From the IMG/VR virus record IMGVR_UViG_3300002920_000044, positions 19,344 through 83,343 of that record: a stretch of 64,000 nucleotides of DNA; one strand, 5' to 3'. The number at the start of each line of letters is the position of its first letter. Positions within the stretch are counted from its first letter, which is position 1. The position numbers and the translations under genes are program-made. Source of the DNA: a virus. Of the stretch, positions 18,648 through 60,231 are shown in pieces. A model generated the notes under the pieces. That model ran no database searches. It was not told the DNA's origin and saw only the letters and a program-made list of their open reading frames with translations.

Positions 18648-19478
18648 ATGGATTATTACAACATACTAGGCGTTGAAAAAACTGCCACCCCAGACGAAAT
18701 TAAAAAAGCTTACAGAAAGCTTGCAATGCAATACCATCCCGACAAAGGGGGGGATCCTGAACAGTTCCAAGCTATTAACGAAGCCTATGAAACCTTAAAA
18801 GATGCAAACAAGCGCGCCCAATATGACAGATATGGAAATATCTCGTCACAAAACTTTAGATACCAACAGCAGGCTTATTCTGTACAAGACATAGATGATT
18901 TGAATGATATATTCAATCATTTTTTTGGCAGAAACTTTGAACAAACATTCAGAAATTCTGGAATTAATTCTAGGCAAATAATGCGTACTACTGTGGGGGT
19001 TTCTTTGCGCGAAGCTTATACCGGCGCAGAGAAGATAATTCAACTACGCACAATGACAGAGAACAGGACTATAAGTATTAAGGTAGCACCTGGTATTAAA
19101 ACTGGCGACCAAGTTAGATATGACAATGTAATTGAGGGAATAATTTTAATAGTTAGCTTTCATGTCATGGATGATTTGAAGTTTACCAGAAACGGGCACG
19201 ATTTGTATTGTAACTTGCCTATCTCTGTGTTAGATTTAATTGTTGGAAAGACAATTAAATTTACCTCTATTGATGATAAGGAAATTGAAGTTACTATCCC
19301 TCCCTATATGCAGCCAACAAAGACTATCAGAATACCGGGAAAAGGTATGCCAGTTTATGGTAATCCCGGTATATATGGCGATCAATATTTAGTATTAAAG
19401 CCCTTTGTTCCTGTAGAATTACCTAAATTCCTAATTGACGCGATACAAGAATTTACCTCATCTAATAAGGATAATTAA
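18648..19478 (+). CDS. dnaJ: DnaJ/CbpA-type co-chaperone (J domain plus C-terminal domain, no zinc finger)
   Basis: MDYYNILGV...[19 protein letters not shown]...[10 protein letters not shown]; C-terminal [16 protein letters not shown]...IRIPGKGMP. Confidence 0.9.
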
Positions 19479-29348: not shown

Positions 29349-31205
29349 ATGAACCTAGGTGACTTTGACACCACAATAACAGAAGCCCCCATGAATCCCA
29401 ACGAGTTTGCCAAGGCAATTGAAGTTGGGCAAAGTGAGGGGGTTTTGGTTGGTTACGAGTTTGAGATAGGTATTCCTGCCGCTTATTCGGGTGGCTACAG
29501 AACAACAAAAAAACTAGCTAGTCAAATAAAAACTACACTCAATACTAAAGTAAAGATTTTTGATGTTACTCATCAACATTCTAAAAAGCTTGACATATGG
29601 TACATTGAACCAGATGAAAGTTTACAAACCCAAGATTCCAAGGACGTAGCTCTTGAAGTAGTTACTACTCCCATGCCTCCCCGAGAAGCAGTGCAAGTGT
29701 TGAAAAGTTTCTATCAGTTAGCTAAGAGTAACAATTTTTATACTGGCAAACAATATTCAACTGGATTACATATCAATGTAAGTATACCGAAAACTCTAGA
29801 TGTATTAAAGTTAGCTTTATTTTTGGGTGACGAATATTTGTTAAAGCTATTTGATAGGGAAGATATTAAATATGTTTGGTCTTTAAAAAAAGAGGTAGAA
29901 GATAACCTAATAAGTGGCGATGACTTTGTAGAGACCAATACCAAGAAAAAAGGAAAAAAGATATTGGCTACGCAGAATGCCATTGATTTGGAAAAACTTA
30001 AAGCCATAGCCAATAAAATATCAGATGATCACTATGCTAGTATTAATTTCAGCGGTAAGTATGTTAGCTTCAGACATGCAGGCGGTGATTATTTGAATGA
30101 CTACGACAATGTGTTGAATGTAGTAGGTAGATTTGTAAGAGCCATGATCATTGCAAGTGATCCTGAACTTTATAAAAATGAGTATATGAAAAAGTTGTCT
30201 TTGTTAGTGTCTAAGACACAAACTCCTAGAATTAAAGACATTGATAAGGCTAAAGAGTATTTGAAGCTATTGCAATTTATAAAAACTAACGGATATCCGG
30301 TAGTAGTAGCTAGTTCGTTGTTTGGTGTAAGCAAACAAGAAGTTTTTAATGGTATACCTGGTGAATTATTGCAAGCACTACATATATTATACAGGACTAA
30401 TAATTATAAACGTGACACTAGTGTTAAAGCCAAAAAGTTTGCTAAACAAAATATTTTGAACTATTATTCATCTATGTTATCAGCAGATTCTAAGTTAATG
30501 AAAATGTATAATGATGCCACGTTATTGGGTGCAAGCCTTACATATATGGTTTGTCCAGCTGACTCTTTAGCACAAACAATCCAAATATTAAATTCTATGG
30601 AGTTTCCTTTTAAAGGCACGTATTATTATAATAATGATTGGGCGCCGATTTACCATGTTGAATATTTTCCTTTGAACCATCCACTAGTTAGCGATAGTTA
30701 TAAAAAAATAACCCGAGACTATAAAGAATATATGGATAAGGCACGCCAGGGCGATTATGTTAATGAAGACAAACAAGCACCAATCTACTACTTTTCTTAC
30801 GGTATGCTAACTGATTCAGACTATTTGCCAGGTGCAGAATTGATGGGTGTAGCAGAATTGAGAAACTTCGAGTTTACTATGTATGCATATGCCAATGTCG
30901 AACCAAAAACGGGAAGCAAGGTATATGGTGCCTTGTGGAAACTAGATAAGAATTTGCTGTCATCACTAGACCAAATTGAAGATTATCCAGAATTATATGA
31001 CCGCAGAACTTACCCAGTTTATATGGATGGGAAAAAATACCCAGCAGAAGTTTATTTGATGACGCCAAGAACGCTTGAATATATCAGTAACACAGTGCCT
31101 ACACAACAGTATATCAACACTGTACTAAAAGGCTATAAAAATGCAGGAATTCCAATTAGCCAGTTGTATGATGCTCTTGATTTCAATACTACGAATAAAT
31201 ATTAA
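29349..31205 (+). CDS. COOH-NH2 amidoligase (Amidoligase_2-like) fused to C-terminal gamma-glutamylcyclotransferase (AIG2/GGCT)
   Basis: Ligase: VGYEFEI, IEPDESL, LEVVTTPM, TGLHINVS, YASIN, VSFRHAGG. GGCT: YFSYG..., VYGALW, LDQIEDYP.LYDR, AEVYLM. Confidence 0.78.
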   Translation: MNLGDFDTTITEAPMNPNEFAKAIEVGQSEGVLVGYEFEIGIPAAYSGGYRTTKKLASQIKTTLNTKVKIFDVTHQHSKKLDIWYIEPDESLQTQDSKDVALEVVTTPMPPREAVQVLKSFYQLAKSNNFYTGKQYSTGLHINVSIPKTLDVLKLALFLGDEYLLKLFDREDIKYVWSLKKEVEDNLISGDDFVETNTKKKGKKILATQNAIDLEKLKAIANKISDDHYASINFSGKYVSFRHAGGDYLNDYDNVLNVVGRFVRAMIIASDPELYKNEYMKKLSLLVSKTQTPRIKDIDKAKEYLKLLQFIKTNGYPVVVASSLFGVSKQEVFNGIPGELLQALHILYRTNNYKRDTSVKAKKFAKQNILNYYSSMLSADSKLMKMYNDATLLGASLTYMVCPADSLAQTIQILNSMEFPFKGTYYYNNDWAPIYHVEYFPLNHPLVSDSYKKITRDYKEYMDKARQGDYVNEDKQAPIYYFSYGMLTDSDYLPGAELMGVAELRNFEFTMYAYANVEPKTGSKVYGALWKLDKNLLSSLDQIEDYPELYDRRTYPVYMDGKKYPAEVYLMTPRTLEYISNTVPTQQYINTVLKGYKNAGIPISQLYDALDFNTTNKY

Positions 31206-31219
31206 TGTAGGATTATATT

Positions 31220-31663
31220 ATGCTAACAGAAACTCTTAAAGTATTATTAGCTACAAGTTATAGCTTTGCTATCAAGGCTCAAAATTTTCATTGGAATTGT
31301 GAGGGCCCAGACTTTCCACAGTATCATAAATTTTTTGGTGATATTTACGAAGAAGTGTTCAACAATTCAATTGACCAGTTAGCCGAGTATGTTAGAATAC
31401 TTGGTAGCTATACTCCGGGAAGCTTTACTAGAATGATAGAGTTGTCCAAAATTGAGGACCAACTTCTTATTCCCAGAGCCGAACTAATGATTGCCGAACT
31501 TTATCAGGATAACCAGATTCTTCTTGAATTGTATAAAGAAGCGTTTCATGTCGCCGAACAAGCAGACGAGCAGGCTATTTGTGATTTTTTTGCTAGCAGA
31601 ATTAACGCACACGGTAAGTGGGGTTGGCAACTTAGAAGTACCTTAAGCAAGTCAAGAGCGTAA
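31220..31663 (+). CDS. dps: Dps/ferritin-like DNA protection protein
   Basis: KAQNFHWNCEGPDFPQYHKFFGDIYEE...DQLAEYVRILG...HGKWGWQLRS. Confidence 0.88.
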   Translation: MLTETLKVLLATSYSFAIKAQNFHWNCEGPDFPQYHKFFGDIYEEVFNNSIDQLAEYVRILGSYTPGSFTRMIELSKIEDQLLIPRAELMIAELYQDNQILLELYKEAFHVAEQADEQAICDFFASRINAHGKWGWQLRSTLSKSRA

Positions 31664-32467
31664 TTATTTTTCTTTTCCGTCTGCTAATCCTTCGTCTGGG
31701 TTAATACAAGTTTGCATTAACATCTCAACTTTAACTAATGCTTTTTTGCGAATTTGCTCACTATCTAAAATATCCCCAAGATAGATATACTGTGGCTTGT
31801 TACTATAGAACTTGGCTACTTCGCTATCATTTGATATACTAACTACGGCATCTGGAGAAAGCTTCATGTCCTTTATACATTCAATATCCCTCATAGTGTC
31901 TGGGTAGTTCTTCAATACCCACCCGTCAAGTGTGATTGTTTCACTTCTAACTAACTCAGCAACTTGATTGTGTTTGCTAGCATCAATCTTTTCTTTCTTG
32001 GCAAGTGTAATTGGGTCAATAAGTTTAATTTCATAGGTCTTTGCTAGATATTCGGCAATACCATGTTTATCGTCTAATACAATAATTTTAGGGGGAACTA
32101 CCCTCTCAGCACTGTCTGATTCGAACCCTATTTCTTCTAAGAAGACAGGCAACTCACTATAACAGTTTGGGCCGCGCACAACTTGAATGTGCAATTTTTC
32201 TTGAAGTTCTTGTTCATCGCCAGTTGTCTTGCCAGGTATTATCAATACATTGACACCTTCTATATCACCAATTTGTTTGTAAATAATTGATACGTCAAGC
32301 CATGCAGCAACCTCTACATCCAAAACTCTAATCTTATATGTAAAATCTTGCGGGTTTATAGCTTCAAGAACTCTTTGTAATCCTTTTGCAGCCAGTTTTC
32401 CTGTAACAAATATTACCTTACTGTTTTTTTCAGGTCTATATTCGTTAATAAGTTCTTCAACTATCAT
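31664..32467 (-). CDS. DUF6513-like domain fused to a degenerate adenylate-kinase-like domain
   Basis: IFVTGKLA...VLEAINPQDFTY.IRVL.V.VAAWL...LIIPGKTTGD...L...VVRGP resembles the N-domain of methanopterin-type DHPS-like proteins. GWVLKNYPDT...PDAVVSI resembles ADK GWILDGFPRT but lacks a P-loop. Confidence 0.55.
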   Translation of the reverse strand: MIVEELINEYRPEKNSKVIFVTGKLAAKGLQRVLEAINPQDFTYKIRVLDVEVAAWLDVSIIYKQIGDIEGVNVLIIPGKTTGDEQELQEKLHIQVVRGPNCYSELPVFLEEIGFESDSAERVVPPKIIVLDDKHGIAEYLAKTYEIKLIDPITLAKKEKIDASKHNQVAELVRSETITLDGWVLKNYPDTMRDIECIKDMKLSPDAVVSISNDSEVAKFYSNKPQYIYLGDILDSEQIRKKALVKVEMLMQTCINPDEGLADGKEK

Positions 32468-32532
32468 AATGATTATTCCTTATTATTATTTAGTTTCAGA
32501 GATAAATACTTAGTATATTTAAAAGGACGATT

Positions 32533-35462: not shown

Positions 35463-35951
35463 ATGAAGAACTTTGTATTTGCAGCCGTAGCTGCTACTGT
35501 GGCCTTTGCTGCAACACCTGCAATGGCCGACAACTCAAACTTTACCGGCCCTCGTGTGGGTCTAACTGCTGGTTACGATGATGTAACTGGTTCTTTTGAT
35601 GCCAACGATGTAGTATATGGTGCTGATGTTGGTGTTGATCTTCCGGTTGGTGAAAACGTTGTTGTTGGACTTGAAGGCACTGTAACTAATGTCTTTGAAG
35701 ACACCCGTACTTTTGGTGTTGGTGCTCGTGCTGGCTATACCGTAACTGACAACCTTATGCCTTTCGTTCGTGTTGGTTGGGCAAACTATAGTGATGTTCT
35801 CAATGGTGACCTCAACGGTGTAACTGTTGGTGGTGGTCTTGAGTATGCACTTAACAGCGCAATCTATACCAAGGTTGAATATCGTTACAGCGATTTTGAA
35901 AAGGGCGTTGGTAATCACGGCGCACTTATCGGGGTAGGAATTAGGTTCTGA
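35463..35951 (+). CDS. Outer-membrane 8-stranded beta-barrel (porin/opacity-like) with signal peptide
   Basis: Signal peptide MKNFVFAAVAATVAFAATPAMA; alternating G/hydrophobic strands; C-terminal VGIRF (terminal Phe, BAM signal). Confidence 0.85.
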   Translation: MKNFVFAAVAATVAFAATPAMADNSNFTGPRVGLTAGYDDVTGSFDANDVVYGADVGVDLPVGENVVVGLEGTVTNVFEDTRTFGVGARAGYTVTDNLMPFVRVGWANYSDVLNGDLNGVTVGGGLEYALNSAIYTKVEYRYSDFEKGVGNHGALIGVGIRF

Positions 35952-47195: not shown

Positions 47196-48257
47196 ATGAA
47201 GGTTGAAGCAGTTACTAAGTTAGACTTTGGCAATGTTCTTATAAAACCCAGATACTCTACTTTAAAGAGCAGAAAAGACGTTAATTTGAATGTAACTTAT
47301 ACTTTCAAGCACTCAGGAATAACTTGGACAGGCATCCCCATTATAGCAGCAAATATGGACGGTGTGGGGACTGTTGAAATGGCAATAGCCCTTCAAAAAA
47401 TGAATATGCTTACTGCATTAGTAAAAACCACCCAAGAAATACCAATAGAGCTTAACCATAACAATTATGTCATAAGTACTGGAATTAATAAGAACGACTA
47501 CGAAAGACTTAAAGTTTTAATGTCCTCTGCAACAGAACATAGATTTATCTGTATTGATGTTGCTAATGGCTATAGTCAGAATTTTCTCAATTATATTTCT
47601 AAGGTAAGAGAAAAATATAAGACTTTAGTTACTATCATGGCAGGTAACGTAGTCACGCCAGAAATGGCACAGATGGTTATTAATGCTGGAGCTGATATTG
47701 TTAAGATAGGTATTGGTTCGGGGGCGGTATGCACAACTCGTATTCAAACAGGCATAGGATACCCCCAACTTTCGGCTATAATAGAATGTAGAGAAGCAGT
47801 GCACCAACTTAGTGCTCATATCATATCAGACGGCGGTTGTACCTGCCCGGGTGATGTAGCTAAGGCGTTTGGTGCAGGCGCTGATTTCGTTATGCTTGGA
47901 TCGTTGTTCGCAGGGCACAATGAGGGCGGGGGAGAAATAATTTCAAAATCTTTCCGAACAAACCATTATGTAAAGGGAGTACAGCAATGGAACAACGAAG
48001 ATTATGTACAATTTTACGGTATGAGCAGCGAGACAGCTATGAAGAAGCATCACGGGGGCGTAGAAGATTATCGTAGTAGTGAGGGCAGAACAATAGAAGT
48101 TAAGTATAAAGGTCCGGTAGAAAATACAGTTAAAGATTTGCTCGGTGGAATTCGTAGTAGCTGTACTTACGTAGGAGCCAAAAATCTATCAGAGTTGTAT
48201 GATAAGACTACATTTATTAAAGTGAATAAACAATTTAATGAGTTATTTGTCAAATAA
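47196..48257 (+). CDS. guaC: GMP reductase
   Basis: KPRYSTLKSRKDV, PIIAANMDGVG, CIDVANGYS, GIGSGAVCTTR..TGIGYPQLSA, DGGCTCPGDVAKAFG, FYGMSS and YRSSEG. Confidence 0.93.
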   Translation: MKVEAVTKLDFGNVLIKPRYSTLKSRKDVNLNVTYTFKHSGITWTGIPIIAANMDGVGTVEMAIALQKMNMLTALVKTTQEIPIELNHNNYVISTGINKNDYERLKVLMSSATEHRFICIDVANGYSQNFLNYISKVREKYKTLVTIMAGNVVTPEMAQMVINAGADIVKIGIGSGAVCTTRIQTGIGYPQLSAIIECREAVHQLSAHIISDGGCTCPGDVAKAFGAGADFVMLGSLFAGHNEGGGEIISKSFRTNHYVKGVQQWNNEDYVQFYGMSSETAMKKHHGGVEDYRSSEGRTIEVKYKGPVENTVKDLLGGIRSSCTYVGAKNLSELYDKTTFIKVNKQFNELFVK

Positions 48258-48268
48258 AGGAAACTATT

Positions 48269-48538
48269 ATGATGACTATCGACGAAGTATTTGAAGAAAT
48301 AAAAAGAGAAAGAGCATACCAAGAAAACAAGTGGGGCAATTTTGAGCAACATCCTCAGTCTTTGCCCGGGTATCTTTTGATTATGAAAAAAGAATTAGAA
48401 GAGGCCGAAGACGGCTGGATGAAAAACTCAACAGGCAGAAACCATGTATTACACGAAATTTTGCAAGTAGCTACTGTTGCAATTGCCTGCTTAGAGGAAC
48501 ATGGAAATAAAAGTTATTTGGGAAACAGCGATAAATAA
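48269..48538 (+). CDS. MazG-like all-alpha NTP pyrophosphatase
   Basis: ERAYQENKWG...KELEEA...HEILQVATVAIACLE (ExxE...ExxQ pattern). Confidence 0.5.
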   Translation: MMTIDEVFEEIKRERAYQENKWGNFEQHPQSLPGYLLIMKKELEEAEDGWMKNSTGRNHVLHEILQVATVAIACLEEHGNKSYLGNSDK

Positions 48539-48539
48539 A

Positions 48540-48610
48540 GATGTAGCACAAAGGCTACATCCTGAGAGAAATCTCCGTTGAGCGTAAACGTTAGACGCTA
48601 CGAAAGGAAA
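48540..48610 (+). ncRNA. Candidate structured 5' leader of folE
   Basis: 8 bp stem gatgtagc/gctacatc, GAGA-GAAA-TCTC GNRA hairpin and agcgt/acgct stem, packed into about 70 nt before the AAGGA RBS. Confidence 0.5.
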
Positions 48611-48615
48611 CAACA

Positions 48616-49290
48616 ATGAGTTACAATAGAGTTAAAACTGATCCAGAGTTGGGCCAAAGAGTTCATAATTATTTGGTTAAAATGGGTGTTGAAACCCCTG
48701 TCATAGAAAATAATCTAAGCAGAACTACTAAAATTGAAATCATCCAACAAAAATTTGCAGACATTATGGAAACACTGGGCTTGGATCTAAGTGACGATAG
48801 CTTAGCTGACACTCCTAAGCGTGTGGCCAAGATGTATGTGGGTGAGATTTTTTGGGGATTAGATTATGATGCATTCCCCAAGTGTACCACTGTAGATAAC
48901 AAGATGCATTATGATGAAATGGTAATTGAACGCAACATAATTGTTATGAGTAACTGTGAACACCACTTTATTACCATCGATGGGCTAGCAACAGTAGCAT
49001 ACGTTCCAGACAAGAAGGTTCTTGGCTTGTCAAAGATTAACAGAATAGTAGAATATTTTGCAAAAAGACCTCAGATACAGGAACGTTTGACCGAGCAGAT
49101 ATTCCATGCATTGTGTTATATTCTAGAAACTGATAATGTTGCAGTTATGATTGACGCTAAGCATTATTGCGTAGCTAGCAGGGGCGTAGAAGATACTGGT
49201 TCTAGGACTATCACTAGCAAGTTAGGCGGTGGATTTAAGTCTGACCCGGCAGCTAGAGCAGAGTTCTTGAGCATAGCCAAGCAGCGTTAA
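48616..49290 (+). CDS. folE: GTP cyclohydrolase I
   Basis: TPKRVAKMY, SNCEHH, GLSKINRIV..FAKRPQIQERLT and HYCVASRGV. Confidence 0.95.
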   Translation: MSYNRVKTDPELGQRVHNYLVKMGVETPVIENNLSRTTKIEIIQQKFADIMETLGLDLSDDSLADTPKRVAKMYVGEIFWGLDYDAFPKCTTVDNKMHYDEMVIERNIIVMSNCEHHFITIDGLATVAYVPDKKVLGLSKINRIVEYFAKRPQIQERLTEQIFHALCYILETDNVAVMIDAKHYCVASRGVEDTGSRTITSKLGGGFKSDPAARAEFLSIAKQR

Positions 49291-49546
49291 TCTTGGCTTT
49301 TTCAATTTCACCTTGTTATTATTTTTTATGCTTAGAAAGATATTCTGACAAAATGATATATTGACTAACCTGTCTTCAAGATGCCCAAAAAATATTGAAT
49401 TGGATAAAGTAACGTGATAATATAAAATGGGAAAACTAGTAGTAAAGATAAGCTTAATATTGATTTGAGTTGTTGTTTTTTATTTCATGATTTAGAAGAT
49501 GTGTAGTAATTAATCTTAAATTTTAATCTTAAATTAAAGAAGGATA

Positions 49547-49888
49547 TTGAATATGGGAAAGTTTTTTAGTTTTTACGGATTAGCTCAGCGTAGTGAATAC
49601 TGGGCTGTTATGTTAATCTTAATTGTATCTAGTTTCTTTTTAGGTTTCGGCGTTGGCGGGTTATTACTCTCTGACAACACGATAATTTTAGGATTGATAC
49701 TACTCTTGATACTAACAGTTATCTCAGGTTGGGTAATACTGGCAACTACCGCCCGTCGTTGTCGTGACGCAGGCATCAGTCCTTACTGGTGTCTAGCATT
49801 GTTAGTTCCTTATGTTAGCCTCGTTGCCACGATAGTGTTCGGCGTAATCCCTACTAATACTATACAGCATACACAGGATTTTGAATGA
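49547..49888 (+). CDS. DUF805-family membrane protein
   Basis: FSFYG...RSEYW, hydrophobic helices, ARRCRDAGISPYW (compare RRLHD.G.SGW). Confidence 0.7.
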   Translation: MNMGKFFSFYGLAQRSEYWAVMLILIVSSFFLGFGVGGLLLSDNTIILGLILLLILTVISGWVILATTARRCRDAGISPYWCLALLVPYVSLVATIVFGVIPTNTIQHTQDFE

Positions 49889-50100
49889 ACTATGAACTTG
49901 ACTTACACGGAGTAAAGCACCAAGATGCTGACCGAGAAGTAGAGAATTTTGTTTATATTAATCAGCAAAATTTTCCTATCAGGATAATTTGCGGTAATAG
50001 CCATAAAATGGTTGGTATCACACAGTCAGCACTTGAAAGAATTGGTTGTGAATATACAATGTATAGGTATGGTGTAATTACAGTAAGTAAATTTAAATGA
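49885..50100 (+). CDS. Smr-like domain protein
   Basis: LDLHG...A...VENF...IRIICGNS. Confidence 0.6.
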   Translation: MNYELDLHGVKHQDADREVENFVYINQQNFPIRIICGNSHKMVGITQSALERIGCEYTMYRYGVITVSKFK

Positions 50101-50786
50101 CTAAAGAAATCAAATCCAACAGGTCTACAGCAGTAGTTCAAAAAAGAATTGAACCTAAGACAGGTCTTGACGATTTCCCTACTCCTCCTTGGGCTACTAG
50201 GGCGTTATGCGAGTGGCTATTATCGAAAAATATTGCCATTAACACAATGACTGTTAGAGAGCCGGCCGCAAATAGGGGCCATATGGCAAAGCCCTTATCT
50301 GAATTTTTCAAGACAGTTGAAGGCTCAGATGTTTATGATTACGGGTATGGCTTTTCAGTCAAGAACTTTATAACAGAAGAGGATTTTAGTGAAGTTGATT
50401 TTACTATCACTAATCCTCCCTTTATTTTAGCAAAAGACTTCATAGAAAAAGCTCTTAGAACAAGCAAAGTGGGAGTAGCAGTTATTGTTAGGCTTGCTTT
50501 TATTGAGGGTAAAGACCGATATAATTCTTTGTTCAAAGAAAACCCTCCCACATACCTTTTACAACATGTAGAACGTGTAGGAATATGTAAGGGTACAATC
50601 AAGAAAGACGTAGCCGCAGCAACAGCTTATTGTTGGCTAGTGTGGCTAAAAGACCGAAAAAATGAAGAAACCAAGATAAATTGGATTGAACCTTGCAAAG
50701 AACGTCTTGAAAGAGAAGACGACTATCATACAGAAACAGTTTCCCCAGAATTATCAAATTACAGTATTTTGTTTAAAGAAGAATAA
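50097..50786 (+). CDS. DNA N6-adenine methyltransferase-like protein
   Basis: DDFPTPPWAT, REPAANRGHM (motif I variant), ITNPPF (motif IV) and RLAFIEG. Confidence 0.75.
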   Translation: MTKEIKSNRSTAVVQKRIEPKTGLDDFPTPPWATRALCEWLLSKNIAINTMTVREPAANRGHMAKPLSEFFKTVEGSDVYDYGYGFSVKNFITEEDFSEVDFTITNPPFILAKDFIEKALRTSKVGVAVIVRLAFIEGKDRYNSLFKENPPTYLLQHVERVGICKGTIKKDVAAATAYCWLVWLKDRKNEETKINWIEPCKERLEREDDYHTETVSPELSNYSILFKEE

Positions 50787-50841
50787 AAAATGTCTTTATA
50801 TGATACAAATTGTTTGTTATAATTATTCAAAGGATTGATAA

Positions 50842-51339
50842 ATGATAGCAAGAACATATAAATATACATCTACCAAAGAATACCATGATGCTTTCCCTTG
50901 TGCATATAGGCAATGGCGAGCAGATAGTCACTGTAATCTAATACATGGCTATAGTTTCAATTTTAAGTTCTACTTTGGTGCAGATACACTAGACGCTAGA
51001 AATTGGTGCGCAGATTATGGCGGGCTTAGAGATTTGAAAGCAATTCTTGAAGACCAGTTTGATCACACACTCTTAGTAAGTCAGGACGATCCAGAATTAG
51101 AAACCTTCAAGCTTCTCCAAGAAAAGAAAATGGCCAAGCTAACGATAGTTCCTGCAACTGGCTGTGAAGCTATAGCTGATATGCTTTATAGATACGTAAA
51201 CGGTGTTTATATTCCTGATCATTGGGGACAGGGAGAGGCAGATAGGCTTTGGTGTTATAGGGTTGAAGTTCGTGAGACACAAAGTAATATGGCTTTCAGA
51301 GAAGGCCATCGTGAATGGAATGAGTCTTTGTTAGGTTAA
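50842..51339 (+). CDS. queD: 6-carboxytetrahydropterin synthase
   Basis: SHCNLIHGY, DYGGLRDLK..LEDQFDHTLL, GCEAIA and VEVRET. Confidence 0.88.
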   Translation: MIARTYKYTSTKEYHDAFPCAYRQWRADSHCNLIHGYSFNFKFYFGADTLDARNWCADYGGLRDLKAILEDQFDHTLLVSQDDPELETFKLLQEKKMAKLTIVPATGCEAIADMLYRYVNGVYIPDHWGQGEADRLWCYRVEVRETQSNMAFREGHREWNESLLG

Positions 51340-51581
51340 TTTCTGCAATTTTATTAATGTAGAGAAACAACTAAAAAGGTTTTGAAATTTTTCAGTTGAA
51401 TAACTATTCACATAAAAGAACCAACATGAACAATAAACTAGAAAAATTAGACTAGTATTGCAATTAAACTACACTGGGCATTCAGTTTGTCCAGCATAGC
51501 TGAATTAATTGATGTAGTAGAAGAACTTATATGACAAATAAATTGTCCATGAAACGGGGAAGAAAGGTGATAGGGGAAAAT

Positions 51582-52073
51582 ATGCTTAAACAAGTTTTTT
51601 ACACAGATAAAGACATAGACGGAATGGTACATGATATCATTCGTTCTTTGGCCAAAGAAAATTGGAAGCCTGACTATATAGTTGGTATAACTAGGGGTGG
51701 GTTAATTCCTGCTATCTATATTAGTCATTATTGTGACATTAAGATGGAAACATTGAAAGTAAGTATTTTGTCTGACGATTGTGAAAGCAACTGCTGGATG
51801 GCAGAAGATGCATTTAATGGTAAGAACATTCTTATTATTGATGACATAGTTGATAAGGGTAAAACATTTAATTGGATAAAAGAAGATTGGCAATCTATGT
51901 GTTTTCCTGATGACCCAAAGTGGAAAAATATTTGGCACAATAATGTCAAGTTTGCTTCTTTGATTTACAATGAAGCATCTGAATTTCCAGTTGATTTTTA
52001 TTCAGAAAGCATCAATAAAGTAGAGAATCCAGTTTGGATTACCTACCCCTGGGAGAAGTGGTGGCGGGCGTGA
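51582..52073 (+). CDS. Type I purine phosphoribosyltransferase (Gpt/Xpt-like)
   Basis: IVGITRGGLIPA, ILIIDDIVDKGKT (PRPP-binding loop) and WITYPWE; probable ATG at 51582. Confidence 0.85.
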   Translation: MLKQVFYTDKDIDGMVHDIIRSLAKENWKPDYIVGITRGGLIPAIYISHYCDIKMETLKVSILSDDCESNCWMAEDAFNGKNILIIDDIVDKGKTFNWIKEDWQSMCFPDDPKWKNIWHNNVKFASLIYNEASEFPVDFYSESINKVENPVWITYPWEKWWRA

Positions 52074-52245
52074 TATTTCTTGAGGTTAGAAATATCAACC
52101 TTTAGTCTACTCTTAACCCAACCAGAAGAAATTTCCTTAGGTAAGAAACGCTTTTCTTATGTTTCATTTTGTTTCTTGTTAAAATTAGAGTAGTTAGGCT
52201 GTTGTCTTCTGCCTAAATATAAGGTGAAGGTAAAAAGTAAAATAC

Positions 52246-52280
52246 TTTCTCTTTGTATAAATAACACTATACAAGAGAAA
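52246..52280 (+). promoter_or_regulatory. RBS-sequestering hairpin containing a late promoter, upstream of the HNH gene
   Basis: 13 bp stem with one bulge, tttctc(t)ttgtata / tatacaagagaaa; TATAAATA at 52256-52263; ATG at 52283. Confidence 0.7.
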
Positions 52281-52282
52281 TA

Positions 52283-53575
52283 ATGATTAACTTACACTAT
52301 AAAAACAGATACGACAAATTTATTACTTCTATCAAGTCTCAACCAAATAGAGATATTAGCAAAACATATACAGAGTTTCATCATATCCAGCCCAGATGTC
52401 TCAAGGGAAGTGATGATCCTGATAACTTGATTGAGTTAACGTTAAGAGAACATCATTTGGCACATTGGCTATTATGGAAATCATATCCAGACTATTTACC
52501 AATTGCAAGTGCATTTTTGCAAATGAACAACAAGAATTTTAAGAGTAACAAGAAATTCAAGCCTCTTCCAAGCAAAGTGTATGAAACCCTCAAGACAGAG
52601 ACATATAAAATGTTAAGTGAACTCAAGACAGATAAAGTCTATGTAAGAGATAAGGCTGGTAATCTTATAGAAATGTCTAAAAAAGAATATGCTGAACAAG
52701 AAGAGCTAAAATTTCATACTACAGGAAAGCTCGTAGTATTTGACCGTGAGGATAATATATACAAGTCTATTACTACAATAGAATACTATTCTAATAAGCA
52801 TCGCTATGTTACTAACGTAGGAGCGGGAGTAGGAGAAATCAATCCTGAAAAATGCAGATATAAATTTAAGGACATAGAAACAGGTAATATAGTCAAAATA
52901 ACAAAAAAAGACGCAAGAATATACAATAAGCAGGCAGGATACAAGAGATATAAGCAGATAATTAAACAGAAAATACCTGTTATTGATAAAGAAGGTAATA
53001 AATCACTTGTTGAGGTAGACCAATATTATAAAGGAAATTATAAACATTATAATTCAGAAACCGTTACCGTCTATGATAAACACTTACAGCGTAATAGGTC
53101 TATTACAAGAGAAGAATACTACACTGATCCAAATAGGTATGACACTTCTACTAAAGGAAAAGTAGTGGCAAAAAATTCAGTTGGAGAAACTGTTTTGGTA
53201 GATAAGGAAGATTTTGCTTCTGGTAAGTATGTAGGTCATACAAAAGGGCTAAGAACCATGTATGATGTTGATACTGGCAAATATAAACAGATAACAGAAA
53301 AAGAATGGTTGAACAATAAAAACAGATATACAGGCCCAAACAAGGGTAAAATTAATGTTATCAACAAACACACTGGTGTAAGAGAGCAAATTGACAAAAA
53401 AGACTTTGATTCGTCTGTTTATCTTAGTTTAGGTGCACATTCATACTTGTTTAGGGCAAGAAATAAGTTGACTAATAAAGAGAAAAACATTAATATATAT
53501 GAATGGGACTTAGTAAAAAATCAGTATGATATTATTGACATAGAGCAATTTAATAATGCGATGAAGAAAAAATAA
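52283..53575 (+). mobile_element. Free-standing HNH homing endonuclease (Mob-like) with repeated C-terminal DNA-binding modules
   Basis: EFHHIQPRCLKGSDDPDNLIELTLREHHLAHWLLWK, then about 8 repeats like KG.V.V.D..G....I...EY.....Y. Confidence 0.85.
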
Positions 53576-53590
53576 AAGAAAGGTAAATCA

Positions 53591-54469
53591 ATGGCTAATG
53601 GTAATTCGAACCTTATTAAGGTATCGGAACTTTTTTTTTTTTTTTCAATCCAGGGTGAAGGCCGATATATGGGCGTCCCCAGCATTTTTCTAAGAACCTT
53701 TGGTTGTAATTTTAAATGTTTAGGATTCGGGATGCCTAAAGGACAACTGAGTGATGAAGTTGATAAGATCAATCCAGCAGAATATAATTCATATGACCAG
53801 CTTCCTCTCGTTAGTACTGGATGTGACTCGTATGCCGCGCATAATCCTCGCTTTAAGCATCTTTCTCCCAGCAGGGACATTGATACTCTTGTTAGTGATA
53901 TTATGGAATTGTTACCGTTCAAAGAATGGCGAGACGAACACCTCGTTATTACGGGAGGAGAACCACTCTTAGGTTGGCAAAGAGCATATCCTAACTTGTT
54001 AAATCACAATAATATGCATGGACTAAAAGAGTTGACCTTTGAAACTAACGGTACTCAACCCCTACGCAAAGACTTTGCTGAATATCTTACAACATGGGTA
54101 GCGACCGGCGCAGATAATTTTAATATTGAAAGAGAAGTTACCTTCAGCGTAAGTCCCAAACTATCTGTGAGTGGTGAGCTAAGGCAGAATGCCATCAAGC
54201 CTCATGTCGTGGCAGAATACGAGAAGATCGGGTATACCTATCTTAAGTTTGTTATCGCAACAGAAGAAGATGCCAACGAAGCACTTGAGGTAACAAATCT
54301 TTATCGTCAAGCAGGTGTTAAGGGTCCAGTTTATTTCATGCCCGTGGGCGGCGTCGAGGAAGTCTATAACCTTAACAGTCAAAATGTAGCAGAGCTTGCT
54401 ATGAAATATGGCGTTAGGTATAGTGACAGACTGCATATTCCTCTATGGGGCAATCAGTGGGGAACCTGA
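53591..54469 (+). CDS. queE: 7-carboxy-7-deazaguanine synthase (radical SAM)
   Basis: SIQGEG..G.PSIFLRTFGCNFKC...CDS, VITGGEPLL, ETNGT and SVSPK; T15 run near the 5' end. Confidence 0.9.
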   Translation: MANGNSNLIKVSELFFFFSIQGEGRYMGVPSIFLRTFGCNFKCLGFGMPKGQLSDEVDKINPAEYNSYDQLPLVSTGCDSYAAHNPRFKHLSPSRDIDTLVSDIMELLPFKEWRDEHLVITGGEPLLGWQRAYPNLLNHNNMHGLKELTFETNGTQPLRKDFAEYLTTWVATGADNFNIEREVTFSVSPKLSVSGELRQNAIKPHVVAEYEKIGYTYLKFVIATEEDANEALEVTNLYRQAGVKGPVYFMPVGGVEEVYNLNSQNVAELAMKYGVRYSDRLHIPLWGNQWGT

Positions 54470-56273: not shown

Positions 56274-57320
56274 TTGTCAATCTACTTGCAAAGGATTACC
56301 TTGTTGACTTTTAATCAGACTATAAAACGTTTGGGTTTTGCGTGTAAGCCTTCTTTTATTGACAACGGCGTAATTGCCACTATACCAGAAATGAACTGTA
56401 AGACTACTACGTTAGCTTGGCTTAATCGTCAGACCAAGAAGGTAGCAGAAGAAAAGCTTTGGTCCTTGCTTAAGCACAACATCCAAGCACTAGATAATAG
56501 TTTCAGATTCATTGCCGATAAGCCTGCCGAACTTAGAATGTTTCGCATGTCTTCAGATATCATTCCAGTATATAACCATCATGACTGGCAATACTTCTAT
56601 AAAAGCAGCGAAGTCAAAGCTTACATGGAGAAAAACTTTGCTAAACTAGGTGAGTATGCTAAGCTTAACGATATTCGTATCTCGTTTCACCCTGACCAGT
56701 TTGTTGTTTTGGCATCTGATAAAGAAGATGTAGTTCTAAAAAGTATCCATGAATTCGAGTATCACTGTGATATAGCTAGAATGATGGGCTATGGTCAGAA
56801 ATTTCAGGATATGAAGATTAATGTTCATATCTCGGGTAAGCAAGGTCCTGAAGGCATCAAAAAGGTAATTACAAAGCTAAGCACCGAAGCTAGGAATACT
56901 CTGACAATCGAGAATGACGAAATGACCTGGGGCATTGATGCTAGCCTTGAGCTGGTTGGCACCTGTGCATTAGTTTTGGACATTCATCATCACTTTGTAA
57001 GCACCGGCGAATATATCCAGCCAAACGACGACCGCATCAAAAGAATTATTGATAGTTGGCGAGGAGTCAGGCCGGTTATGCACTACTCATTGACCAAAGA
57101 AGACAATTTGCCGAACCACTGTATAGATACTATGCCATGTCATACTACTTTACTAAAAAATGGTATAAGTAAACAAAAACTTAGGGCTCATAGTAATTAT
57201 ATGTGGAATAACCCATGCAATATGTGGGCTAAAGGACATTGGGAGTGGGCTGACTGTATGGTAGAAGCCAAAGCAAAGAACCTGGCTAGTTTTAAGCTAT
57301 ATGAGTCTTGGAAAGGCTGA
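56274..57320 (+). CDS. uvsE: UV DNA damage endonuclease (UvsE/UVDE)
   Basis: RLGFACK, MFRMSSD, ISFHPDQFVVLAS, NVHISG, LTIENDE, LDIHHH, MHYS and MVEAKAKN. The true start may be the later TTG near 56301. Confidence 0.88.
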   Translation: MSIYLQRITLLTFNQTIKRLGFACKPSFIDNGVIATIPEMNCKTTTLAWLNRQTKKVAEEKLWSLLKHNIQALDNSFRFIADKPAELRMFRMSSDIIPVYNHHDWQYFYKSSEVKAYMEKNFAKLGEYAKLNDIRISFHPDQFVVLASDKEDVVLKSIHEFEYHCDIARMMGYGQKFQDMKINVHISGKQGPEGIKKVITKLSTEARNTLTIENDEMTWGIDASLELVGTCALVLDIHHHFVSTGEYIQPNDDRIKRIIDSWRGVRPVMHYSLTKEDNLPNHCIDTMPCHTTLLKNGISKQKLRAHSNYMWNNPCNMWAKGHWEWADCMVEAKAKNLASFKLYESWKG

Positions 57321-57807: not shown

Positions 57808-58391
57808 TGGTAAAATTTGGTAAATTAGTGCCATATATCAGAAACCGTTTAACTCAGCATCATGACTTATATACTTCACTGTGTAAAGCAGAATTGTGGG
57901 AAGAATTATTAAGTAAGGCACTTATTGATGCAGGATTTGGTTCAGATTGGAAACCAGACTATAATCACCAAGTTGGTGTAGATCAAGTAACTGATTGCGG
58001 AATCAGAATTAGCAACAAGGGCGGTATATTTTTAAATAACGGTAATGGAATGAAGATATCTGGATCTAGACTTACTTCTCATAAAACACTTGAGGATAAG
58101 CTTAAATTTCTCTCAAACAAAACAGAAGATTATATTTTTTGTCTTGCCTCTGACAAGAGAGATAAAAAAATACATTCTTCCCCAGTTTATTATTTTATTG
58201 TAATTGATTCTGCTAAACTTGATTATCACAATGCAGTATGGACTGTTAACTATAATACTAACGGAAACGTAAAAAGTTATCTAGGAATTGGTAATGGATA
58301 TGAGGCAACTATCAATTGTTCAATGTCAGATCAGATATGGACTAAGATAGAATCTGCATTATTTGAGGAAAAGTACAAAATTATAATATGA
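57807..58391 (+). CDS. Hypothetical protein, possible PD-(D/E)XK restriction-like nuclease
   Basis: ELWEE...VGVDQVTD...ISNKGG could be a D...SxK variant; overlaps the adjacent methyltransferase gene. Confidence 0.35.
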   Translation: MVKFGKLVPYIRNRLTQHHDLYTSLCKAELWEELLSKALIDAGFGSDWKPDYNHQVGVDQVTDCGIRISNKGGIFLNNGNGMKISGSRLTSHKTLEDKLKFLSNKTEDYIFCLASDKRDKKIHSSPVYYFIVIDSAKLDYHNAVWTVNYNTNGNVKSYLGIGNGYEATINCSMSDQIWTKIESALFEEKYKIII

Positions 58392-59134
58392 CAAACATAC
58401 AACTATATCACGGTGATTGTCTAGAATTACTTGGTGATATTCCAAACAACTCAATTGATATGCTATTAGTAGATTTACCTTATGGCACCACAGCATGTAA
58501 GTGGGACAGTGTTATTCCTTTAGAACAATTATGGGAACACTATAACCGAATATGCAAAGAAGAAGCTGCGATGGTTTTTACTGCTGCCCAACCCTTTACT
58601 ACTATTTTGATTAATTCAAATATTGCCAATTTCAAATATGAATGGATATGGGAAAAACCCCAAGGCACTAATCCTATGTGTGCAAAGATAATGCCTTTGA
58701 AGTCACATGAAAATATCCTTGTTTTTGCAAGAAAGAAAACCAAATATTATCCGCAAATGGAACAGGGAACACCTTACAAAGGGTTTCATAGTGACAAAGC
58801 TACAATAGGAAAAGTATACGGGCAAGCAAAGTCAAAGCACCGAGACAATCCAGAAGGAACTCGTTATCCTAAAACTGTTTTACGTTTTAAACAGGAAAAA
58901 GGATTTCATCCTACACAAAAACCTGTTCCTCTCATGGAATATCTAATCAAAACTTACACAGATGAAGGTGACACAGTCTTAGATAATACAATGGGTTCAG
59001 GAACAACTGGTGTAGCTTGTAAGAATTTAGGCAGAAATTTTATCGGTATGGAACAAGATAAAGAATATTTTCGCATTGCAAATGATAGAATATTTTCAAA
59101 AGAATTTAACCACCCCTTATTTGAAGAAGAATAG
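58388..59134 (+). CDS. DNA N4-cytosine/N6-adenine methyltransferase (beta class)
   Basis: IYHGDCLE-like N-terminus, VDLPYG (motif IV), HPTQKP and VLDNTMGSGTTG (motif I). Confidence 0.9.
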   Translation: MTNIQLYHGDCLELLGDIPNNSIDMLLVDLPYGTTACKWDSVIPLEQLWEHYNRICKEEAAMVFTAAQPFTTILINSNIANFKYEWIWEKPQGTNPMCAKIMPLKSHENILVFARKKTKYYPQMEQGTPYKGFHSDKATIGKVYGQAKSKHRDNPEGTRYPKTVLRFKQEKGFHPTQKPVPLMEYLIKTYTDEGDTVLDNTMGSGTTGVACKNLGRNFIGMEQDKEYFRIANDRIFSKEFNHPLFEEE

Positions 59135-59217: not shown

Positions 59218-60231
59218 ATGAAATATGCATTGGTAGACTTAGCTAATTCTTTTTTCCGAGCACGACATATTGCTTCTCGTAATTCAGATATTTGGGAGAA
59301 GCTGGGTATGGCCATCCATATCACATTAGTTTCGGTTAACTCTATTGCAAGAAATTATAACATCGACCACGTTGTATTCTGTCTTGAGGGCAGGTCATGG
59401 CGTAAAGACATTTATCCCAAATATAAGGCAAATCGCAGATTAGATGAATCTGCCATGACCGAAGCTGAGATTGAAGAGAATCAATTGTTTTGGGACACTT
59501 ACGAAGATTTCACTAAGTTTTTGCGAAATAAAACCAATGCCAGTGTTATCAGGTGCCCCAACGCAGAAGCCGATGACATTATTGCTAGGTTTATTGCCTT
59601 GCATCCTGATGACGAACACTTTATTGTTTCAACTGATAGTGACTTTGTACAGCTTATCAGCAAGAGTGTCAAGCAATACAATGGTGCAACTAACCAGCTT
59701 ATTACTATTGATGGATACTTTGATGACAAGGGCAATCAAGTAGTCGATAAAAAGACTAAAGAGCCAAAAATTCTTGAAGATCCTAAGTACCAATTATTCA
59801 AGAAAATTATTCGTGGTGATGCTACTGACAACATCTTTAGTGCATATCCTGGTGTAAGGGAAAAAGGCACCAAGAACACTGTGGGTATTCGTGAAGCATT
59901 TGACGACCGCAATAAGCAAGGCTTCAAGTGGAACAACTTCATGTTACAGCGTTGGATTGACCATGAACAAAATGAACATATAGTTAAGGATATGTATGAC
60001 TTGAATCGTACTCTTATCGACCTTAATGCTCAACCAGACAAAATTAAACAGGATGTAGATAACTCTATTATAGAACAGCTACAGACTAAACCTCATCCCA
60101 TGGTGGGTGTTCAATTGATGAAATTTGCCGGCAAATATGAATTGGTCAAGATCGGTGAACAGGCTGATACATATAGTAAATGGCTCAATAAGGTCTATCC
60201 TGGTAAACTAAGGGTAAATCAAGATGGATAA
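59218..60231 (+). CDS. rnh: T4 RNase H-like 5'-3' exonuclease (FEN family)
   Basis: LVDLAN, FCLEGRSWRKDIYPKYKANR, EADDIIA, STDSDFVQL and GDATDNI. Confidence 0.88.
   Translation: MKYALVDLANSFFRARHIASRNSDIWEKLGMAIHITLVSVNSIARNYNIDHVVFCLEGRSWRKDIYPKYKANRRLDESAMTEAEIEENQLFWDTYEDFTKFLRNKTNASVIRCPNAEADDIIARFIALHPDDEHFIVSTDSDFVQLISKSVKQYNGATNQLITIDGYFDDKGNQVVDKKTKEPKILEDPKYQLFKKIIRGDATDNIFSAYPGVREKGTKNTVGIREAFDDRNKQGFKWNNFMLQRWIDHEQNEHIVKDMYDLNRTLIDLNAQPDKIKQDVDNSIIEQLQTKPHPMVGVQLMKFAGKYELVKIGEQADTYSKWLNKVYPGKLRVNQDG

Follow-up and report, generated by a model that had tools for sequence, protein, structure and literature searches.

A DUF6513–adenylate kinase-type fusion protein of a large tailed phage as a putative non-catalytic ligand-binding pseudokinase

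Introduction

What purpose can be served in a phage by a protein that joins a small domain of cofactor-biosynthesis enzymes to a kinase-like domain devoid of its phosphate-binding loop? This question is raised by a minus-strand gene in a 64,000-nucleotide stretch of viral DNA (positions 19,344 to 83,343 of IMG/VR record IMGVR_UViG_3300002920_000044), the whole of which is called the window here. The window was assigned to a large tailed phage by its genes for a tail fibre, a family B DNA polymerase, a Clp-like ATPase, and a homing endonuclease. Its source record is a 100-kb fragment rated 29% complete by CheckV, from which a genome size of roughly 350 kb was calculated. The gene and its surroundings are composed of the following features:

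31664..32467, minus strand: ORF encoding a fusion of a DUF6513 domain and an adenylate kinase (ADK)-derived pseudokinase, 267 aa plus stop
32477..32481, minus strand: AAGGA Shine-Dalgarno/ribosome-binding site, 9 nt upstream of the ATG, read directly from the sequence
31220..31663, plus strand: Dps/ferritin-like gene (PF00210, E = 1.7e-17), convergent and abutting the pseudokinase stop codon
32533..35001, plus strand: Amidoligase_2 gene, 822 aa (E = 1e-8), divergent from the pseudokinase gene
29349-31205: second amidoligase, fused to a GGACT domain (Pfam)

The encoded protein starts with MIVEELINE. The first-pass annotation, made from the sequence alone, had placed a gene with this leader antisense between dps and an amidoligase, which was confirmed by the ORF and Pfam analyses. 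No ORF of at least 60 aa was detected on the plus strand overlapping this gene, and a promoter and terminator scan around it, including the 65-nt divergent intergenic region, gave nothing above chance.

Several other genes of the window were recorded in passing. Downstream of the amidoligase lies a plus-strand gene (35463-35951) for a 162-aa outer-membrane β-barrel protein with a typical signal peptide (OMP_b-brl, E = 7e-16), which may be a porin-like gene of host origin. The region 47196-54469 carries GMP-reductase/IMPDH-like, GTP cyclohydrolase I, DUF805, PTPS/QueD-like, phosphoribosyltransferase, and radical SAM genes, a set that corresponds to a 7-deazaguanine-type module. Shortly downstream of a UvdE-type UV damage endonuclease (56274-57320, plus strand, E = 1.4e-40), genes for a DNA methylase (58388-59134) and for a 5'-3' exonuclease (59218-60231) are present.

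Results

Kinase ancestry and lost catalytic parts

The protein was divided into the following parts:

32132..32431, minus strand: N-terminal domain, residues 13–112, DUF6513, a four-stranded Rossmann-type module (Pfam; model)
32099..32131, minus strand: inter-domain linker, residues 113–123 (pLDDT below 50 at residues 113–120)
31709..32098, minus strand: C-terminal domain, residues 124–253, ADK CORE plus NMP-bind remnant, catalytically degenerate (alignment, structure matches)
32060..32086, minus strand: IIVLDDKHG, residues 128–136, remnant of strand 1 and the Walker A loop (alignment, motif scan)

A full-length AlphaFold model (pLDDT 82.8) consisted of two domains, 16–110 and 126–253, joined by a disordered linker; its pTM of 0.59 denotes low confidence for the domain arrangement and for residues 254 onward. 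Pfam ADK (PF00406) gave no match on the window protein itself even at E-values up to 1, and the kinase ancestry was recognized through its relatives. Thirty-one homologues were found, and a dozen more distant ones (37–50% identity) have PF00406 alongside the DUF6513 family PF20123; the relative P0027 matched PF00406 with E = 3e-34 over positions 1–148 of 151. A profile of 26 family members matched solved ADKs at E-values of 1e-10 to 3e-13 in the NMP-bind/CORE region, and the C-terminal domain of the model was superimposed on ADKs with Z-scores of 12–14 and an rmsd of 2.2–2.5 Å over 126 residues (Foldseek probability 1.00). The first-pass proposal of an ADK-like fold whose P-loop is replaced by IIVLDDKHG was hence upheld by the family profile, the structure matches, and the alignment to relatives. 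The profile check that it had suggested for each half succeeded for DUF6513 directly, and for ADK by way of the relatives and the family profile, not by Pfam on the window protein.

The alignment located the missing catalytic parts. IIVLDDKHG is aligned exactly with ILLLGRPGSGKST of the relatives with a 4-residue deletion, by which VLDDK----HG is placed opposite LGRPGSGKST. A gap of about 30 columns lies opposite the LID segment RLLKRGRTGEDY...KRL of P0027, and part of the NMP-bind helices is missing too. When aligned through P0027, R36, D84, and R88 of E. coli ADK, which we take to be NMP-site and Mg residues in that numbering, correspond to K157, K186, and D190 of the window protein, respectively. 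The loss of its Walker A loop and LID, together with that of the D84/R88 equivalents, rules out canonical phosphotransfer by this protein. Remnant positions conserved in at least 90% of the P-loop-less members include H166, N167, E171, R174, Y188, P189, R193, W197, D206, E248, and C254.

Intact relatives and repeated inactivation

A Walker A regex scan detected GxxGxGK[ST] in only 4 of about 45 relatives, namely GRPGSGKS/T in P0027, P0029, and P0030 and GKPGSGKS in P0038. Half-decayed P-loops remain in P0033 (GTPGSHKT) and P0039 (GPVGSHRG), and all other members have a deletion at this place. The four intact relatives also keep STGDLLR, DGYPRT, and an RLLKRG...KRL LID; these elements, with RLLKRGR...KRL as the form of the LID in P0027, form the signature of a short-type kinase. 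The C-terminal half thus descends from a real short-type NMP kinase that is still intact in a few members.

On a maximum-likelihood tree of 42 members, the intact kinases occupied two separate supported positions beside P-loop-less sisters: P0038 is grouped with the P-loop-less P0041 (SH-aLRT 99), and P0032 and P0036 stand next to the P0027 clade. The supported branches force at least three state changes, and because regain of a P-loop together with a LID is implausible, the catalytic parts were lost several times. At least three separate losses with the domain kept imply that the dead domain is retained for a non-catalytic role. The family offers a clear natural example of the evolution of a viral pseudoenzyme, in which a kinase domain was repeatedly inactivated yet kept, and for which the intact relatives can serve as controls.

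Two cysteines are a further property of the family:

32162..32164, minus strand: C102, in the CYSELP motif at the end of the DUF6513 domain, invariant in 42/42 members
31706..31708, minus strand: C254, just after the last helix, invariant in 42/42 members

They are the sole cysteines in 18 of the 42 members, and generic DUF6513 proteins have no conserved cysteine at the C102 position.

An HMM search of 1.84 billion cluster representatives gave 21 matches at E ≤ 1e-30, full-length two-domain proteins among them, and the remaining matches were DUF6513-only proteins or ADKs. Three IMG/VR contigs, two of them rated complete (608 kb and 457 kb) and one of 38 kb, carry related loci, as do two metagenome contigs; all family loci retrieved were viral or metagenomic. 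No member was detected when 185,579 species-representative genomes were scanned by pattern, or by tblastn against 50,697 GenBank phage records, and a further genome scan gave no relative of a Thermogladius DUF6513 protein. BFVD contained no two-domain structural equivalent, only generic NMP kinases at TM ≤ 0.37. The pseudokinase family has thus far been met with in viral and environmental DNA alone.

An extra N-terminal domain of roughly 110–130 aa was noted in about a third of the members (L001:7632-8000, L002:7653-8020, P0020, P0027, P0029, P0030, P0032, P0034, P0036, P0040, P0042, and P0043). Its MRD, FHG[ST], and G.LF.DFD.A...G..VYEC motifs are conserved, as are two of its cysteines, and it had no Pfam or ESM Atlas match; as a sequence pattern, its H-G-S ... 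E arrangement faintly recalls motifs of the ADP-ribosyltransferase type.

The DUF6513 half

Pfam DUF6513 (PF20123) was matched by residues 17–101 over profile positions 2–86 of 86 (E = 1e-17; the score was 64.6 bits, the cut-off being 23.9), and the score was 67.1 bits when the N-terminal domain was scanned alone. The first ~110 aa had been likened at first pass to the N-terminal domain of dihydropteroate synthase (DHPS)-like proteins of methanopterin biosynthesis, a likeness that is sustained by this match and by the location of cellular DUF6513 genes in tetrahydromethanopterin (H4MPT) operons. The NCBIfam model of a dihydropteroate synthase-like protein, TIGR00284, was also matched (E = 1.1e-5, 24.2 bits against a cut-off of 256.65), but only at profile positions 2–103 of 497. 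This indicates that the pterin-binding TIM barrel is absent from the window protein, as the annotation had stated.

Among the P-loop-less members, the mean pairwise identity was 0.61 for the DUF6513 domain versus 0.41 for the C-terminal domain, and 35 positions conserved in at least 90% of them lie in the former versus 17 in the kinase remnant. Judging from such conservation, the DUF6513 half appears to be the functional core, and the kinase remnant appears to be under non-catalytic constraint. Two conserved elements of the core are of particular concern here:

32402..32404, minus strand: T22, an almost invariant Thr ending strand 1 (conservation)
32297..32311, minus strand: V53-A54-A55-W56-L57, the DUF6513 motif of highest conservation, which makes a short helical turn immediately behind strand 2 (DSSP and conservation)

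A search of PDB sequences with the DUF6513 profile gave nothing meaningful, hence no solved structure by sequence, and an ESM Atlas feature search with the N-terminal domain gave no usable match outside DUF6513. No paper naming DUF6513 was found in full-text literature searches, and PMC8305020 held nothing on this domain.

Structural relation of DUF6513 to cobalamin-binding domains

Folding of residues 1–114 in isolation, for which 85 diverse DUF6513 proteins were aligned, gave a model with a pLDDT of 91.8 and a pTM of 0.85. It comprised four strands (16–22, 42–48, 74–77, and 95–98), each followed by a helix, together with a three-residue helical turn (A54-A55-W56) directly after strand 2. When this model was compared with 48,161 representative chains by VIA-align, the top four matches were all cobalamin-binding domains (18–21% identity). 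The best was the domain by which CFeSP (corrinoid iron-sulfur protein) binds B12 (2h9a_A residues 330–441; Z = 10.3, rmsd 2.8 Å, 97 aa, 18% identity), followed by two DUF512 proteins (Z = 9.4 and 9.0) and Mmp10 (Z = 8.0), after which came generic Rossmann-like folds with Z ≤ 7.4 and lower identity. Foldseek ranked Mmp10 first and also retrieved DUF512 and CFeSP at a probability of 0.98–1.00 with 13–23% identity.

A faint echo was perceived at the sequence level. When the 85 DUF6513 proteins were scanned singly against all of Pfam, DUF512 was the most recurrent family after DUF6513 itself, with weak matches in 14 of the 85 (best E = 0.012), and the N-terminal domain of the window protein matched the DUF512 HMM at residues 6–52 with E = 0.11. 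Cobalamin binding by the DUF512 and Mmp10 domains was shown by experiment, and the spacing between the Thr that binds the dimethylbenzimidazole (DMB) tail and the lower-axial Leu is 31–43 residues in these proteins (PMC11659888). A 2025 review described the CFeSP-like fold as a distinct and ancient one of four parallel strands, in which a short cap helix off strand 2 lies under the corrin, the cofactor is bound base-off, and the DMB tail is buried between the sheet and the helices (PMC13331322). T22 of the window protein stands 34 residues upstream of the A54-A55-W56 turn; by this spacing, T22 was inferred to be a candidate counterpart of the Thr that hydrogen-bonds the DMB tail in Mmp10/DUF512 (PMC11659888), and the V53-A54-A55-W56-L57 turn, by analogy, a candidate cap helix as defined in PMC13331322. 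On the whole, DUF6513 is probably homologous to the CFeSP-type fold class. This is the first structural lead that we found for DUF6513, and it suggests a CFeSP-type module for binding a nucleotide tail or a corrinoid, a role that the literature found does not assign to the DHPS-like enzyme.

Gene neighbourhoods of phage and cellular DUF6513 proteins

The arrangement of Dps and amidoligase was kept around the 67%-identical homologue L004, and this synteny was confined to the close clade. The 41%-identical member L005, on a viral-looking metagenome contig, is accompanied by genes for an AhpC/TSA peroxiredoxin, a class II aldolase, and a CMD (AhpD-like) protein (L005:8047-9765), a trio of oxidative-stress type. 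The neighbours of L003 are DUF6267 and a cytidylyltransferase-like protein, and that of L002 is a poly(A) polymerase/CCA-type enzyme. An ORF upstream of the L003 homologue was considered as a Dps homologue and rejected, its same length notwithstanding. In the loci compared, no gene neighbour was conserved family-wide, and neither FolE nor amidoligase co-occurred consistently with the family. A link with the 7-deazaguanine/pterin module was likewise rejected because neither of the two complete megaphages in which the family occurs has FolE. G001, a complete phage of 608 kb, has a family member and no Amidoligase_2, and G002 has a single Amidoligase_2 far from its family member.

Cellular DUF6513 genes were placed through megaplasmids of the aerobic bacteria Aquabacterium olei and Azoarcus sp. 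KH32C. In both regions (L009:6895-10209 and L010:8297-11758), a conserved and partly overlapping operon flavoprotein-DUF6513-DUF447-MfnB sits in an H4MPT/methanofuran island with β-RFAP synthase, dihydroneopterin aldolase, Mch, MtdB, and Fhc, and the cellular DHPS-like DUF6513 proteins have Pterin_bind. We know of no corrinoid step in the H4MPT/methanofuran pathway. Its DHPS-type reaction uses β-RFAP, an aryl-ribose-5-phosphate resembling the nucleotide tail of a cobamide, and this resemblance implies that the DUF6513 pocket may bind a nucleotide-like metabolite and not a whole corrinoid.

Corrinoid-related genes were also surveyed in the phage records. Both complete megaphages with a family member (457 and 608 kb) encode a protein of about 510–520 aa in which an N-terminal B12-binding match precedes a radical SAM domain (L007:646-2166, minus strand; L008:1254-2819, plus strand); the B12-binding scores are below the Pfam cut-off. 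On their domain matches, they are possible cobalamin-dependent radical SAM enzymes. Neither a class II RNR above cut-off nor a genuine CobS was detected in the 100-kb record of the window, which gave no B12-binding match either. A class II RNR link was rejected, as the RNR matches in phage records were far below the NrdJ cut-off, and so was a CobS link, as the "CobS" matches were generic AAA+ matches to Clp-like ATPases.

Discussion

The reading that explains the evidence best, with a probability of about 0.5, is that of a ligand-binding protein without catalysis, which arose from an NMP (adenylate-type) kinase fusion of phage. The DUF6513 match, the ADK descent with its lost catalytic parts, the repeated retention of the dead domain, the stronger conservation of the N-terminal half, the invariant cysteines, the cobalamin-domain structure matches, the DUF512 echoes, and the B12-radical-SAM proteins of the megaphages count for this explanation; the confinement of the cobalamin link to the fold level and to sub-significant HMM echoes, the H4MPT operon setting, the lack of class II RNR, CobS, and B12-binding matches in the 100-kb record, and the lack of a family-wide neighbour count against it. 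The initial annotation had not perceived that the gene belongs to a recurrent phage family with a few intact kinases, that the kinase decayed several times, that the N-terminal domain has a CFeSP/Mmp10-type fold, or that a cysteine pair is invariant.

In such a protein, the small and charged, conserved strand-end residues T22-G23, V53-A54-A55-W56, P78-G79-K80, G83-D84, and R98-G99-P100 would form a putative site for a nucleotide-tailed ligand. By means of its remodelled NMP site (H166, N167, E171, R174, and R193), the kinase remnant may form a cap, provide a second contact, or serve as a scaffold, and the C102/C254 pair may couple both domains by way of a disulfide, of a metal, or of a thiolate contact. 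The role of the protein in infection would be to sequester its ligand, to protect it, or to hand it over. A corrinoid is the leading candidate for this ligand, tentative as it is. An aryl- or heteroaryl-ribose-5-phosphate metabolite, suggested by analogy with β-RFAP, comes second and is possible, if doubtful. A bolder and speculative version holds that DUF6513 is an unrecognized corrinoid binder of the CFeSP/Mmp10 type, and that the phage family is a corrinoid-binding pseudokinase, a B12 carrier or sequesterer that evolved from a corrinoid-directed kinase. If this were true, use or binding of a corrinoid would extend to the DHPS-like DUF6513 enzymes that belong to tetrahydromethanopterin biosynthesis. 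Should the ligand be a cobamide, giant phages would have a novel means of managing a host cofactor in short supply.

Other readings were weighed against the same observations. The position of the gene between two Amidoligase_2 genes, one of them GGACT-fused, and the preservation of the divergent amidoligase at L004 are what one would expect of an accessory, an adaptor, or a substrate (a tagged protein or substrate presenter) of the flanking amidoligase/γ-glutamyl-cyclotransferase system. However, this synteny does not extend beyond the close clade, distant members have other neighbours, G001 lacks any Amidoligase_2, and the G002 copy is remote, which makes such a role unlikely. A redox- or metal-handling protein, for which C102 and C254 would provide a thiol switch or an Fe/Zn site alongside oxidative-stress proteins, would account for the invariance of these cysteines in 42/42 members, 18 of which have no others, and for the Dps gene beside the window gene and L004 and the AhpC and CMD/AhpD-like genes at L005. 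But such neighbours occur in only 2 of 5 contexts, two cysteines alone define no known redox motif, and a ligand crevice, not a thiol site, is what the 35 conserved positions of DUF6513 suggest; this reading is unlikely, though it is compatible with, and not exclusive of, the ligand-binding protein preferred above.

The first-pass annotation had also suggested a nucleotide- or pterin-binding sensor or sponge, for example for defence signals. Its general part, non-catalytic binding, is favoured by the present analysis; the defence-signal sponge did not fare as well. The nucleotide-binding ancestry of both domains, the absence of catalysis, and the phage setting would all fit an anti-defence sponge or sensor for nucleotide signals. 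This is nevertheless quite unlikely, since no PADLOC match was obtained at E up to 0.01 (PADLOC consists of defence and not anti-defence models), no conserved defence or anti-defence neighbourhood was detected at the loci compared, and the half under the strongest conservation is a member of a domain family of cofactor biosynthesis; nor, to our knowledge, does this 267-aa two-domain architecture resemble known sponges. That the protein is still an enzyme, for example a phosphotransferase or nucleotidyl-transferase with a non-canonical site made of H166, N167, R174, R193, K134, and K157, might be argued from the 17 remnant positions that are at least 90% conserved in P-loop-less members. The Walker A loop, the LID, and the equivalents of D84 and R88 are all gone, however, and phosphotransfer by an ADK fold deprived of them has, as far as we know, no precedent, so that continued catalysis is highly improbable.

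Comparison with known systems

Short-type adenylate and UMP-CMP kinases (for example 1zak, 1aky, 1ukz, and 2cdn) share the homologous CORE and NMP-bind fold with the window protein, whose NMP-bind segment is shortened.

The closest solved structures to the DUF6513 half, according to two independent aligners and with 18–23% identity, are the CFeSP large subunit (2h9a/4djd), Mmp10 (7qbs), and DUF512 (9cg1/9cg2). Four strands, each with its own helix, are common to the CFeSP-type fold and the DUF6513 model, in which the short turn behind strand 2 is a candidate counterpart of the cap helix. There is no significant sequence match between them, and the likeness resides at the fold level together with sub-significant HMM echoes. 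The partner domains also differ, being a radical SAM domain or the CFeSP barrel in the CFeSP-type proteins and a kinase remnant or a pterin barrel in the DUF6513 proteins.

The DHPS-like DUF6513 proteins share with the window protein the hallmarks T-G, V-A-A, P-G, and R-G-P after strands 1–4, respectively. Their domain is followed by a pterin-binding TIM barrel and a PterinBD-DUF4346 tail, whereas an ADK-derived domain takes this place in the window protein, and W56, K80, and CYSELP are invariant in the phage family only. The same small module is thus set in a cofactor-biosynthesis operon in the DHPS-like proteins, and in a phage in the case of the window protein.
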